NCBI RefSeq assembly: GCF_030384885.1 | Contig: NZ_CP128613.1 | Length of the DNA: 64,000 nt | From: Escherichia coli | GTDB taxonomy: Bacteria > Pseudomonadota > Gammaproteobacteria > Enterobacterales > Enterobacteriaceae | Reading direction: 5' to 3' (one strand) | Shown here: positions 33,530-58,300 of the stretch, one piece after another | Numbering within the stretch: the stretch's first letter is position 1 | Layout: each line of letters starts with the position of its first letter | Notes under the pieces: model-generated | The model's database searches: none | What the model was told of the DNA's origin: nothing | The model's input: only the letters and a program-made list of their open reading frames with translations | Program-made: the position numbers and the translations under genes

Positions 33530-33702
33530 CAAGTTCTTTTGCGTTGCATTGCTGGCGTAAATGTCAGCAATGCAGCATTTCCTCACGATTCTTCTTTGAC
33601 GATCGCACTTTTTGCTCGTTATGATGGCGTCGCTAGCCTCAGTAAATCCTTACTCCGGCGGTGCGCAACCTGTGCGCGTGAACCACTATCTGAATGCTCA
33701 TC

Positions 33703-34635: not shown

Positions 34636-34815
34636 GGGTAGGCAGGATAAGGCGTTTACGCCGCATCAGGCATTCGGAGCACGATGCCTGATGCGATGCT
34701 TGCGCATCTTATCAGGCCTACAAACGTGACGCGTCCGTAGGCAGGATAAGGCGTTCACGCCGCATCCGGCATTCGGTGCACGATGCCTGATGCGATGCTT
34801 CTATTTGCATCAGGC
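34636..34815. repeat. BIME: two tandem ~60-bp units each containing REP palindromes
   Basis: aggcaggataaggcgtt(t/c)acgccgcatc(a/c)ggcattcgg(a/t)gcacgatgcctgatgcgatgctt occurs twice. Confidence 0.8.
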
Positions 34816-52982: not shown

Positions 52983-54071
52983 TCACGGCAGGCGGTGGCG
53001 AGCTTGATAATAAGCCTGCCAGTGAGCTTCTTTATGTGTAGCGACACGCTGTTCGAAGTAACGGCGCAGACGTGCGCGATCTTCTTCGTTATCTTTGACG
53101 ATGGTTCCGGCAATACAGTCTACCAGGTCGGCAGGCTCCCCAGCGCGATTCGCTAAAAACCAGGCGCGGAAACCCACGGCGTGTGCTACGTTAACGGCTT
53201 CAGCGGTGGACATAATCGCTGTAAGGGTATCCATTGAGGTTTTCTTTTCGCCGTTGGCACGCAGATCGCGGAAGGTGCGGACCAGTAACTCCAGTACCGC
53301 GTCAGGCACTTTATGCGGAATACCGCTATGGGCCAGCAAACGTGCCGAAGCGCTGGCGACAAGCTCCAGCTCCTGGGCGAAATCCATAATCGGAAAGACA
53401 GTTTCAAAATCGAAGCGACGCTTGAGTGCGGCACTCATTTCATTGACGCCGCGATCGCGGGTATTGGCAGTAGCAATAATATTAAAGCCTTCCCGCGCAT
53501 AGAGCTGACTGGCTTCACCAGTGAGTTCCGGCACCGTCATAACCCTGTCAGAAAGCATACCTAACAGACAGTCTTGTACTTCCAGTGGTGTACGCGTTAT
53601 CTCTTCAAAACGGACAATTTTGCCGTCGCGCATTCCCTGGTAGAGCGGGGCAGGGACCAGCGCTTCCGTTGACGGACCATGGTTGATAAGCAGGGCGTAG
53701 TTCCAGCCGTACTTGATTTGATCTTCGGTGGTAGATGCGCCGCCCTGGATGGTTAACCCGGCATCGCCGCTAATAGCGGTTGCCAGTAATTCAGACAGGA
53801 GCGATTTTGCGGTGCCAGGTTCCCCCACCAACATCAAACCGCGCCCGGTAGCGAGAGTGACTAACATGCGTTCGACAGCGGAGGGGCTAATCACGACTTT
53901 ACGGCTAATATTTTGTGCTTCGTCGCCAAGGATAAAAACACGGGCCGCAGGCAAACTTAACTGCCAACCGGGCGGGCAAGGTGCGTGATCATTTTGTTTT
54001 AATTTTGCCAGTTCATCGGCGTATAACACAGCGGCAGGCGGACGCTGCAGATGATTATTCTGCGGTGACAT
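52983..54071 (-). CDS. yehL: MoxR-like AAA+ ATPase
   Basis: Walker A LVGEPGTAKS, Walker B/sensor motifs; start at MSPQNNHL. Confidence 0.85.
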   Translation of the reverse strand: MSPQNNHLQRPPAAVLYADELAKLKQNDHAPCPPGWQLSLPAARVFILGDEAQNISRKVVISPSAVERMLVTLATGRGLMLVGEPGTAKSLLSELLATAISGDAGLTIQGGASTTEDQIKYGWNYALLINHGPSTEALVPAPLYQGMRDGKIVRFEEITRTPLEVQDCLLGMLSDRVMTVPELTGEASQLYAREGFNIIATANTRDRGVNEMSAALKRRFDFETVFPIMDFAQELELVASASARLLAHSGIPHKVPDAVLELLVRTFRDLRANGEKKTSMDTLTAIMSTAEAVNVAHAVGFRAWFLANRAGEPADLVDCIAGTIVKDNEEDRARLRRYFEQRVATHKEAHWQAYYQARHRLP

Positions 54072-54181
54072 ATATTCATCCCTGAAATGTATTAATGAAA
54101 TAAACGATATTTTACGCGCAATAAATGTTTGGCGCATTAGTTGTTTGAGCGGAAAATATCTGGAAAGCAGATCACAGTAAA

Positions 54182-54265
54182 TAAAAAAACCTGCTGGTGA
54201 GGCAGGTTCTTTTATTTACTACTTTCAGGCCTAACACCACGGCCTGTGCAACATCGTGTTCCAAC
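54182..54265 (-). ncRNA. orzO: Antisense antitoxin sRNA (OrzO-like) of type I TA locus
   Basis: Minus-strand promoter TTGCAA-17 nt-TATAAT (-10 at 54272-54277), 5' region complementary to toxin leader (54246-54265 vs 54412-54431, 19/20), hairpin acctgc..gcaggt + U7 terminator at 54182-54207. Confidence 0.7.
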
Positions 54266-54294
54266 GAACGAATTATAACCATCGGTGGACCCCG

Positions 54295-54322
54295 TTGCAA
54301 TTAAGATAATGAGATTTATAAT
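54295..54322 (+). promoter_or_regulatory. Promoter of toxin mRNA (TTGCAA-16 nt-TATAAT), giving ~175-nt 5' leader
   Basis: -35 ttgcaa 54295-54300 (palindromic, shared with divergent sRNA promoter), -10 tataat 54317-54322. Confidence 0.65.
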
Positions 54323-54502
54323 CCTGACTGTTGGGACGTTGCGCCGGATCGAACCCATTTCAAGTCCTGGCTACCGGACGGGTGGTGCCGCAGGTAGTGC
54401 CCTGATCCGGAGTGCAACATCGTGGTCCAACATACGTAAACCAGTATCGACAGGCAGTGTAAGGGTAAGATGCTGGTGTTGCGCTCCTTAATAAGGAGAG
54501 CG

Positions 54503-54592
54503 GATGGACACGCTGACACAAAAGTTAACCGTGCTCATTGCCGTACTGGAGTTATTAGTGGCTCTGTTACGGCTGATTGATTTGTTGAAGTA
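54503..54592 (+). CDS. zorO: Type I toxin, 29-aa hydrophobic peptide (ZorO-like)
   Basis: ORF MDTLTQKLTVLIAVLELLVALLRLIDLLK preceded by strong SD taaggagag; matches my recollection of ZorO from E. coli O157:H7; not in ORF track (too short). Confidence 0.7.
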
Positions 54593-54615
54593 ACGGGCAA
54601 ATTGAAACGCATCTA

Positions 54616-54645
54616 AGGGGGAAAATACCGCTTCCCCCTTTAATA
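54616..54645 (+). terminator. Rho-independent terminator of toxin mRNA
   Basis: agggggaa-aataccgc-ttccccct followed by ttaataaaat. Confidence 0.6.
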
Positions 54646-54792
54646 AAATGATTATTGCTTCCATTAATTCACCCGATAACTTTTTTCTTATTTATTAATT
54701 CATCGATTTTATAATTAACGTACATTTGACCGGGATGTGAGTATTTATGGTGGCTATTGGCGAAAAATATCTGGAAACCAGATCGCGGAAAA

Positions 54793-54874
54793 TAAAAAAA
54801 CCTGCTGGTGAGGCAGGTTCTTTTATTTACTACTTTGACGATAACTTGCTGATTGTGCAACATTTCGTACCAAC
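54793..54874 (-). ncRNA. Second Orz-like sRNA (orphan: no cognate toxin ORF downstream)
   Basis: Intact minus-strand promoter TTGCAA(54904-54909)-17-TATAAT(54881-54886), terminator hairpin 54800-54818 + U-run; seed gtgcaacatttcgtaccaac differs from unit 1. Confidence 0.6.
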
Positions 54875-54986
54875 GAGTAAATTATAACCATATCCACACT
54901 CCATTGCAATTCAGTGAGTGAGATTTATAATCCTGCCCCTTGGGAGGTTGTGCCGGATCGGACCAATTTGAATTATTTAGAGTATA

Positions 54987-55304
54987 TTATTCTATTTCTT
55001 GGTTGAATATGTTCTGTAGTTCACGATTAAAAATGGCTATTACCGTTTCTGGTGATTCACCTCGTAATTTTCGCTCATCAATAAATTCATCTCTTATATA
55101 AATCAACGCATCATTTATTAGCGGGTCGGCATCTTCTCCATCACGTTGATGAAATGTTGGACGTAGCCGGAATCGTTCCTGTCGATAGACGGAACCTGTA
55201 AATAATTCAGAGCATTTATGGATCTCAAGTCTGAAGGAAAACGGATCTTCAGGTACAGGGACTTCATAATCATAAGTAGCGACCAGCTCTTTTTGCACGA
55301 TCAT
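54987..55304 (-). CDS. yehK: Uncharacterized small protein
   Basis: 105 aa in conserved position between yehL and yehI. Confidence 0.75.
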   Translation of the reverse strand: MIVQKELVATYDYEVPVPEDPFSFRLEIHKCSELFTGSVYRQERFRLRPTFHQRDGEDADPLINDALIYIRDEFIDERKLRGESPETVIAIFNRELQNIFNQEIE

Positions 55305-55364
55305 CGCTTTTCCCGGTGGTAAGTCGTGTTGATAACGGGCAGTCGCATCACTGCCCGCTGTGTT

Positions 55365-58300
55365 TTAATGGAAAATGACGTCAGGTGCGCTTAACGCTTC
55401 ACTCAAATCAAACGTATCGAGTTCGGCAAAAGTGACAGATTTATTGTCACGGTACACTCGAAGAGAACGGAAGCTCATTAGCGCTTTGCTATCAGCACTG
55501 TAGTGGTTAAAACCGGGTGAAAACTTAAGGACCAGCCGATACTCGCCCAGGTCATAGACACATGCGTCCTCAAAACCTGACTCCCAGCCTTTGTATCGCA
55601 TTCCCATAAGTTGCCCAACGGTTGCGGATTTACCTTCCCAGCGAGTCAGGCTGTTACTGGCTGACTCGTCAGGTGTGAGCAGCACTGTGCGCCGCATCAA
55701 CTGGCGAAAAGGCGGCATAATTTCGTAATCGGCAAAAACCTGTGCAAATTCACTGCGCATTTCTGCTGTCATTTCTAACGGGTGGGCAATGCCAATCAGA
55801 GCATCCGCAGGCAGGTCAATTGGCTCATCTTGTGCGTTGCAGAACTCCCTCTCAGCGGCCACACGAAAGGCGTTAAGTAAACGACGCGGTTCATTTGCCG
55901 GATAAACCGCCCATATTAATCGCTGAGTAACCAGGCGAGTAAAGGGATGATTAACAAACAGAGAATGAAAATCTGCCAGCGACCAGCGTCGAGTGGTGCG
56001 TAGGGCAGTTTCAAGACGCGGGAGCAGGTTTTTGCTCACCTGAGTGGCATCTTTTTTTAGCCCTTTTAGTCGGGCCAGTGCCTCGGGTGCTTTCAGCTGA
56101 TCGTCATCGGCGCGCAACCGGGGAACACTTTTCTGGCGAACGTTTTGCTGATCAAAGATAACCGGGTTGAGGTTTTCATCGAAGCGAACGGTAAACTGCC
56201 GGGGTCCAAAATCAAATATCAACGCCTGCGGATCATCCAGGCCCAGTGTTGGGACTAATCTGTCCGCTAACTCTTCCTGGCTTAGTCCACGATTTTCTGC
56301 GACCACCTGAAGAAATTCCGCCGCGTTATCACGTAAGGGACGGGATTTCGCCCGTTGCGATATATGATGCAGCTGTATCAGCGCCATATCATTATTCATC
56401 AGGGTAAGTATATTCAGACCACTGACAGCACGGGCAGATTTGCCCTCTTGAGGCCAGGCAAGGATCTGTGTCGTCAGATCCCGTGCCGTGCTTTCGTCGC
56501 CAAAGAGACTTAACGCCAGAAATGCCCAGTTGTCTTTTGCGGGAGCACCAGCTTGTTGCCACGCGGTGAAAAGATCCCAGGCAAAAGCGGCCAGCGTTTG
56601 TGGCTGGCAGAACGTTTTCAGTTGTTCCAGCCCGCAATAAAAACGTCCGCCCTGGGTAAAGCGCAGCATTTCGCCAATAATTTCCAGAGCGTCATCAGTA
56701 ACAGGTTGATTATTCGTGATAAGTCTCGGTCTGGACCACATTGTCGGATGCCAGAAATCAGGAGCTTTTGGAATGCGTGTTGGGTAAATCTCTATTGGAC
56801 TCTGTTTAAGTAATTGATCCAGGGCAGGCCATACATCTGTACGCTGCCAGCGGTTTGCCACGGTTTGCAGTAATTCGCCATGCCCTTGTTCATACAGTAA
56901 ACGCAGAGCGCTGAGTGCCGCTTCGCTGTTATCGCCAGACCTGGCAAAGATTAATGGGATCAGCGCCGTAGCCGTATGCTCCGGCCATTGTAAAATCCAC
57001 TGGCGAGCCAGATTACGCTGGCCCGCAAAACGATGCCAGACGCGGGCAACGGGCAGCGCCAGTTCTGTTGCGCCAAAATGAATCAGCAGCGGAAATATCT
57101 CTTTGGGATGTCGGGCAAAGGCGGTGATTAATCCGGGCAAAGCATCGGTACCCAGGACACTTAACAGATATTCTACCCCGGTGTAATGAAAATCAGCCGC
57201 AACAATTTGTTGCCAGCACGATACCGCCATTTCGCGCGGCATCTGCGCGATAAGGTACAGATTCCACACTCCCCAACGCTTTTCATCAGTGTAATTAAAT
57301 TTGCGTTGGAAAGTTCGCCACCCCTCCATCAACGCAACGCTATCTTGTGCCAGTAATGCGCTGGCGGCCTCTTCCCGGTAGTGTTTATTTTCAGTCTGTT
57401 TTGCCTGATAATTGAGCAATCTTCCTAATGAAGTATGTGTCTCTAGTTGATCGGTATCCAGAGCATCCAACTGTCCTGTGAGAATAAACTCATTAAACTT
57501 CCACCTGTGATCTTCAAAACCTAATTCCCGCAAGAAGGTATCTGCCCCTCTGCTTACGAGACGTTCGTCAAAAGACATGGCGCTAAAATGGTCAATTGCA
57601 GTTTGCTGTTCCGGCGTCCAGTGTTTATTCGGCGACCTATACGCTTGCGGTACAAGCGTAAGTTCAGGTAGCGAAAAGTGAGTTATGGAAGTCTTTTTCC
57701 TGCCACGCCATGGTGGTGAAACGAGGATTTCAGGCAGACTGCTGTTATCGGTGCTATCAATAACCGGTTTTGGCGATGCCGATAAATAACTATTCACCAC
57801 TGCCCGGGCTTGAGTACTTAACCACGGGATCACCTCTTCTGCCAGTTGTGGCTGCGATGCCATCAGCGTTTGTAACAGCGTACGCCAGTATTCATCACGT
57901 GCTTTTTGCTGTGCAGGCAGCTTTTTGTCTTCGATGATAGGATAACCAGGGCGCGTAGGGGGGGCTTTTAACGCCAGTAGTTCTGCCAGTGCGGCGAGCG
58001 TCGCATGGGGAAAGTTTTTACTGTATTTAGCCACACGCTGCAGGCTGGGTTTGTTTTTATCGGCAACTAACAGCAAGATGCGAATAATTTGCGGATGGTT
58101 AATTTGTACCAGCAGGCTACCGCAATCTTCTTTATGGGCATACATTGCCAGGTGTGGAATGGCTGCCAGTCCTTGTTCGCGCAAAAGGGCAGCGCAGGCC
58201 GCGTAGCCGAAGTGGTTTTCATGCGACATGTAGCTGGCTTCCCGATCGCTAAATATATCCTGGCTCCAGTAGCGTTCGAGTTTTTTCACCGCTCTGGGGT

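Follow-up and report, generated by a model that had tools for sequence, protein, structure and literature searches.

Tandem zor-orz units between yehL and yehK

The stretch of Escherichia coli DNA analysed here, 64 kb in length and hereafter called the window, carries two tandem zor-orz units with a period of ~610 nt, bracketed by yehL, which lies on the minus strand and starts near 54071, and by yehK (Table 1). The second unit occupies 54760-54972, and its kinship with the first is apparent from two repeat blocks, with 54760-54836 matching 54149-54225 at 94% identity and 54854-54972 matching 54245-54363 at 77% identity. Both units contain two divergent promoter-like sites that have one palindromic TTGCAA -35 hexamer in common, together with a terminator hairpin, and the second unit accordingly displays the yehL-yehK placement and the divergent promoters of a zor-orz pair.

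Table 1. Features of the two zor-orz units and the adjoining gene, in window coordinates
Feature	Position	Strand	Details
Unit 1 sRNA gene, orzP-type (V1 = ACG)	54183..54265	-	83 nt; Rfam 98.9 bits
Unit 1 intact toxin transcript	54330..54645	+	174-nt leader from 54330, equal to the published length of 174 nt
Unit 1 sRNA pairing site in toxin leader	54412-54431	+	within the 54330..54645 transcript
Unit 1 toxin ORF	54504-54593	+	translation MDTLTQKLTVLIAVLELLVALLRLIDLLK
Unit 1 toxin terminator hairpin	~54615-54645	+	3' of the toxin ORF
Unit 2 left end of repeat	54760..54793	.	3' of the orz terminator; small inverted repeat ATCTGGAAACCAGAT at 54769-54783
Unit 2 orphan orzO-type sRNA gene	54794..54874	-	81 nt; 5' end GUUGGUACGAAAUGUUGCAC; 3' end formed by terminator hairpin and U-run
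Unit 2 orz terminator hairpin	54799-54819	-	3' end of the orphan sRNA gene
Unit 2 orz promoter	54881..54909	-	-35 TTGCAA (54904-54909), 17-nt spacer, -10 TATAAT (54881-54886)
Unit 2 orphaned zor (toxin) promoter	54904..54931	+	TTGCAA-16-TATAAT; palindromic -35 hexamer common with the orz promoter
zorO 5' leader remnant	54939..54969	+	31 nt; start-equivalent base is C here, G in O157
Deletion junction	54969/54970	.	ccaattt/gaattat; 325 bp missing (L001 2371-2695); 2 nt (TT) of microhomology
yehK	54987..55304	-	in the ORF list, and annotated by RefSeq at the identical locus of strain 2013C-4282; transcribed towards the orphaned zor promoter

The first unit is intact, and its sRNA matches Rfam family RF02083 (OrzO-P) at 54183-54258 on the minus strand over the full length of the model, differing from O157 OrzP by two substitutions. 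The sRNA of the second unit, which we refer to as the orphan, is likewise assigned to the OrzO-P family by the covariance model, with a match at 54794-54867 on the minus strand that covers model positions 1-76 of 76 at 90.6 bits (E = 5e-15) against a gathering score of 60. Its 5' end was set 7 nt after the -10 hexamer, a position that fits the published pairing of the first 18 nt of OrzO with zorO. Relative to O157 OrzO the orphan has three substitutions in 81 nt, all of them past the first 24 nt, and this divergence, in an element carried by three genomes, is similar to the ~5% of the surrounding region. Its promoter has the same hexamers and spacer as O157 unit 2, from which it departs by a single substitution in the stretch that separates the -10 from the start. 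The first-pass annotation had described a second unit that keeps its sRNA, both promoters (54909..54881 and 54904..54931) and its terminator, and each of these elements could be located. Northern evidence exists for two such antitoxins only, EDL933 OrzO and the MG1655 orphan, OrzPmg (PMC3919570; PMC11264685). Because the -35, spacer and -10 are the same as those of O157 orzO and the orphan of K-12 is detectable by northern, the window orphan is probably still transcribed, as an expressed sRNA that would lack a cognate target.

No second toxin accompanies this antitoxin. A tblastn search with ZorO returned 54504-54593 as its sole match in the window, and three-frame translation downstream of 54931 yielded no ZorO-like ORF; the initial report of a second unit devoid of a toxin ORF thus withstood a search past 54931 for a missed ORF with a Shine-Dalgarno sequence. 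The 29-aa hydrophobic Zor ORF that follows a leader of ~174 nt is missing from unit 2, and with no second ORF and a leader that is cut at +31 the unit represents the antitoxin half of a locus and not a toxin-antitoxin pair. Two ORFs considered as candidate toxins, 54914-55006 and 54940-55101, were rejected: neither begins downstream of the transcript start, and both lack a Shine-Dalgarno sequence and hydrophobic character.

Unit identity and extent of the deletion

The target specificity of OrzO and OrzP is set by the V1 triplet, which is GAA in OrzO and ACG in OrzP (Wen et al. 2014, PMC3919570), and ZorP differs by definition from ZorO in the substitution T3S (Shore et al. 2024, PMC11264685). 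By these markers the yehL-proximal unit of O157, with S3 and ACG, is zorP/orzP, and the yehK-proximal unit, with T3 and GAA, is zorO/orzO. The first 24 nt of the orphan, V1 = GAA included, are identical to O157:H7 OrzO and place it in the OrzO subtype. Intact unit 1 of the window combines an orzP-type sRNA and the leader site gtgcaacatcgtggtccaac with a toxin of ZorO amino-acid sequence. Judged by pairing region, the unit names of the first-pass annotation were swapped: unit 1 is of the zorP/orzP type and the orphan is orzO. The seeds of the two units do differ at several positions, 4 of 20, as had been noticed. The orphan seed had also been called altered, and this description has to be withdrawn, since its first 24 nt are those of canonical OrzO from O157:H7 and EDL933 with V1 unchanged; the seed is thus ancestral, and what separates it from unit 1 is the distinction that already existed between OrzO and OrzP.

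The deletion was mapped against two reference genomes, O157:H7 strain 7636 (L001) and strain 2012C-4221 (L010), in which both units are complete within the same yehL-yehK interval. The intergenic region measures 943 nt in the window, 1268 nt in strain 7636 and 1267 nt in strain 2012C-4221, so that the two-copy regions are longer by 325 and 324 nt, respectively. Alignment with O157 is collinear through ...ggatcggaccaattt, after which the window goes on as gaattatttagagtat, a sequence that the two-copy genomes have 325 nt later, shortly ahead of the stop codon of yehK. This comparison, which had been proposed as the means of finding the deletion endpoint, places the junction 17 nt before the stop codon of yehK and reveals a clean 325-bp loss of the toxin half, in agreement with the original suggestion that a second toxin-antitoxin copy has decayed and kept its antitoxin gene. 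The deleted segment comprises the zorO leader from +32, including the 18-nt OrzO pairing site (gagcaacgtttcgtaccaac in the O157 zorO leader), the 29-codon ORF, the terminator and a short ERIC-like palindrome. With a published zorO leader of 174 nt, the O157 start falls at L001 2340 and the equivalent base of the window, by alignment, at 54939. The homology had been said to end about 40 nt past the plus-strand start and to run into the 3' region of yehK; the second part of that statement stands, and the distance is corrected to 31 nt. The opposite order of events, in which the short form would be ancestral and the toxin inserted later, is ruled out because the orphan keeps the toxin promoter and a truncated leader.

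Several further features of the deleted interval and its borders were observed. Window position 54939 is C; its counterparts in O157 and unit 1 (position 54330) are G, and transcription from the orphaned promoter might start elsewhere or less efficiently as a result. The ERIC-like repeat between the zor terminator and yehK (L001 2670-2700 in strain 7636) varies in extent, being absent, a short palindrome, partial or full. In the single-copy relatives L004 and FDAARGOS_1303 (L007) the palindrome is expanded to a partial or full element carrying AAGCTCCTGGGGATTCAC, which we take to be the ERIC repeat core. On the right, the 325-bp deletion stops at the outer inverted-repeat end of the ERIC-like repeat (acttgaattat); on the left, the leader includes atttcaagt and attttaagt, which resemble the terminal acttcaagt of the same repeat. 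A different, independent deletion is present in GTEN_97 (L006, ~1120-1150), where the zor terminator runs straight into ...ctatttttctatttcttgg; it removes the ERIC-like segment and alters the 3' end of yehK (321 vs 318 nt).

Pairing potential and competing explanations

Repression of a zor mRNA requires 15 continuous or 17 near-continuous pairs (Wen et al., PMC3919570), which provides a yardstick for the antitoxins of the window. In duplex predictions, OrzO pairs with its site in the O157 zorO leader through 18 continuous pairs from nt 1 (-31.3 kcal/mol), and the unit 1 sRNA pairs with its own leader in a 6(1)13 arrangement (-34.0 kcal/mol). The orphan and the unit 1 leader, which is the sole zor leader in the window, yield a 5(2)2(2)9 duplex of -24.4 kcal/mol. 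Because this pairing is discontinuous and falls below the measured requirement, the orphan is not expected to repress the remaining toxin, and across the 64-kb window it is predicted to form no pairing of at least 15 continuous or 17 near-continuous pairs with a toxin leader. A search of the same 64 kb for off-locus targets of the 20-nt orphan seed gave a best match of 14/20, compared with a mean of 14.3 for shuffled seeds. The earlier suggestion that the orphan has specificity for another target is not upheld by these results, as the cognate zorO leader site lay in the deleted segment and no other target was found in the 64-kb window; the orphan probably has no cognate target in its genome.

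We consider it highly probable that the second unit is the yehK-proximal zorO-orzO unit after a 325-bp deletion, and that the orphan is a recently orphaned and near-neutral relic rather than a regulator of new specificity. The deletion took away the zorO leader from +32 onward, and with it the pairing site, ORF, terminator and ERIC-like palindrome; what persists is orzO, complete with promoter and terminator, as well as the zorO promoter and the 31-nt leader. The orphan OrzO would then be transcribed without a cognate target and would be selectively near-neutral. The lack of a cognate target, together with sub-threshold pairing to the remaining leader, makes a relic the most likely state of the orphan.

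Three other explanations were weighed against this one. Maintenance of the orphan OrzO for toxin-independent regulation of another mRNA in trans is unlikely, even though the gene, its promoter and its terminator are all intact and the K-12-type orphan is both expressed (PMC11264685) and conserved in roughly one in three E. coli (1,789 records with an identity of at least 99%). Shore et al. raised exactly this question for orz-only strains, but no target of orz-only antitoxins is known (PMC11264685), the best seed complementarity outside the locus in the window (14/20) equals the shuffled expectation of 14.3, and the occurrence of the orzO-type orphan in 3 of 5,426 genomes is a rarity easier to reconcile with a recent neutral state than with a selected one. 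Somewhat less likely again is a role for the orphan as a backup of the unit 1 antitoxin, with partial repression of the zorP-type toxin mRNA that remains. In this combination every position of the specificity-setting V1 triplet is mismatched, OrzP with 15 nt of complementarity is unable to repress zorO, and engineered 16-nt discontinuous pairings such as 5(2)11 fail to repress (PMC3919570); these points outweigh the 16 predicted pairs, which include a 9-bp run at a dG of -24.4 kcal/mol, and the fact that the published cross-talk test covered OrzP on zorO and not OrzO on a zorP-type leader (PMC3919570). Weak cross-repression by the orphan is therefore a slim possibility.

The perfect match of the orphan seed to the canonical zorO leader would also suit an anti-addiction element that neutralises zorO arriving on mobile DNA, and a few plasmid records with zor do exist, for example two 181-kb plasmids at 94% identity. 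We regard this explanation as very improbable, since most of the "plasmid" matches are multi-megabase records resembling chromosomes, the survey of Shore et al. contained a single plasmid-borne locus (PMC11264685), and zor-orz otherwise occupies one fixed site on the chromosome. Plasmid-borne zorO was also considered as a trans target of the orphan and set aside, the matches being few and mostly mislabelled chromosomes.

The orphaned toxin promoter raises a separate possibility. With the zor terminator deleted, this promoter faces yehK without an intervening terminator, and the next plus-strand terminator-like hairpin of this region (window 54904-55367) lies at 55336-55357, past the yehK start, so that a transcript from the promoter would be antisense to all of yehK; the orphaned promoter of K-12 is on the same strand. 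It is conceivable, at long odds, that the orphan OrzO has a non-zor target in trans or that the orphaned, still-strong zor promoter drives a ~420-nt yehK antisense RNA ending at 55336-55357. If true, this would amount to a rewiring of the yeh operon common to the third of E. coli that has the same junction, K-12 included.

Relation to known loci and origin of the deletion

Among the 2,212 assemblies surveyed by Shore et al. (2024, mSystems, PMC11264685), 42% have two full loci and 25% have one. Loci with orz only, found in ~30% of E. coli assemblies, keep 27-29 nt of the zor leader, and 96% of them are orzP-like (PMC11264685). The "1.5-copy" class, defined by one full locus and an additional orz, accounts for 6 of the 2,212 assemblies (PMC11264685). 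The window has precisely this composition, a full unit and an extra orz with a leader of about 27-29 nt, counted here as 31 nt, and without pairing site or ORF. The orphan is therefore a rare arrangement that Shore et al. 2024 have already catalogued and is already known (PMC11264685); our literature search found no paper on orz-only loci after theirs.

Like the orz-only and 1.5-copy loci (PMC11264685), the second unit has an antitoxin gene, intact promoters, a zor leader of ~30 nt and no toxin at the yehL-yehK site, but unlike the 96% of orz-only loci that are orzP-like it is of the orzO type. Its junction sequence, ggatcggaccaatttgaattatttagag, is identical to that of the K-12/MG1655 orphan; the window orphan adjoins a surviving unit, whereas the K-12 orphan stands alone and is chimeric. 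Compared with zorO-orzO of O157:H7 EDL933 (Fozo 2010; Wen 2014, PMC3919570; Wen 2017, PMC5397157), the 5' pairing domain of the sRNA is identical over 24 nt, and the promoter architecture, terminator and genomic position are alike; the differences lie in three substitutions of the sRNA body and in a toxin mRNA cut at +31, without pairing site, ORF or terminator. The tisB/istR-1 and shoB/ohsC systems resemble this one in having an sRNA that is divergent from the toxin, does not overlap it and pairs with a long 5' leader, but they belong to different families, and the resemblance of the orphan to ohsC in Rfam is weak and sub-threshold (28.5 bits vs a gathering score of 50). An antitoxin-only state is very rare for shoB/ohsC, with two strains, and none is mentioned for tis/istR (PMC11264685). 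Toxin-independent function of such antitoxins was raised as a question in the same work (PMC11264685), so that whether solo type I antitoxin sRNAs act beyond toxin control was posed with experimental backing in 2024. To this the window orphan adds detail and no new kind of element, namely a rare orzO-type orphan beside a surviving unit, and strains of this type would naturally lend themselves to testing for cross-talk of OrzO with a zorP-type leader.

The exact orzO-type orphan with its junction, in one contiguous piece, occurs in 3 of 5,426 complete genomes. The interval is identical to the window in strain 2013C-4282 and differs by one substitution in 2020CK-00188. The third carrier, VCSW5 (L009), has one substitution in the orphan seed and a unit 1 of a third pairing type. 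An intact zorO unit is present at the same position in ~2,100 of the 5,426 complete genomes, and the K-12-type orphan, at >=99% identity, in 1,789 records (33%). Unit 1 of VCSW5 (~620-700 and 830-850) has the sRNA gene sequence ctgcaacatggcatctcaac and the leader sequence gtgcaacatggcgactcaac, and may correspond to the zorQ/orzQ type of Shore et al.; FDAARGOS_1303 carries a single unit similar to it.

Comparison with K-12 bears on how these states may be related. The junction in K-12 DH10B (L002 1551-1790, set against window 54149-54363 and 54854-54990) is exactly that of the window, and the K-12 unit is a mosaic: its sRNA, its promoters and its leader as far as nt 13, up to gggacgttgcgcc, are orzP-type, and the bases adjoining the junction, ggatcggaccaattt, are orzO-type. 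This pattern is consistent with formation of the K-12 unit from a window-like 1.5-copy locus by recombination of unit 1 with truncated unit 2, and the window has the appearance expected of an intermediate that links the two-copy state with the antitoxin-only state of K-12. However, an identical mosaic accompanies an intact toxin in GTEN_97, a single-copy strain, so that more than one order of events is possible.

The flanks of the junction were compared among five deletion alleles. Position 54977 is T in each of the five and C in four intact alleles, and the five do not differ from one another between the junction and 55010. Past 55010 the deletion alleles fall into three yehK haplotypes with 15-20 substitutions across yehK (window 54963-55320), and K-12 yehK is nearly identical to the yehK of two-copy strains. 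The window orphan and the common K-12 orphan thus combine one and the same junction and adjacent T with clearly distinct yehK haplotypes. The shared T at 54977 and the identity as far as 55010 favour one old deletion that would have moved between backgrounds by recombination ending at the edge of the indel. Independent recurrence of the deletion is a possible alternative to a single origin.

Signs of decay are visible elsewhere in the yeh cluster beside zor-orz in some lineages, where RefSeq annotates a frameshift in yehK of the single-copy strains L004, L005 and FDAARGOS_1303 and an internal stop in yehM of O157:H7 strain 7636. Two other RNA elements in the window, both unrelated to the orphan, exceed their Rfam gathering scores: a Peptidase-S11 RNA motif at 33618-33698 on the plus strand (73.1 bits) and naRNA4/CssrE at 34641-34718 on the plus strand (74.2 bits).
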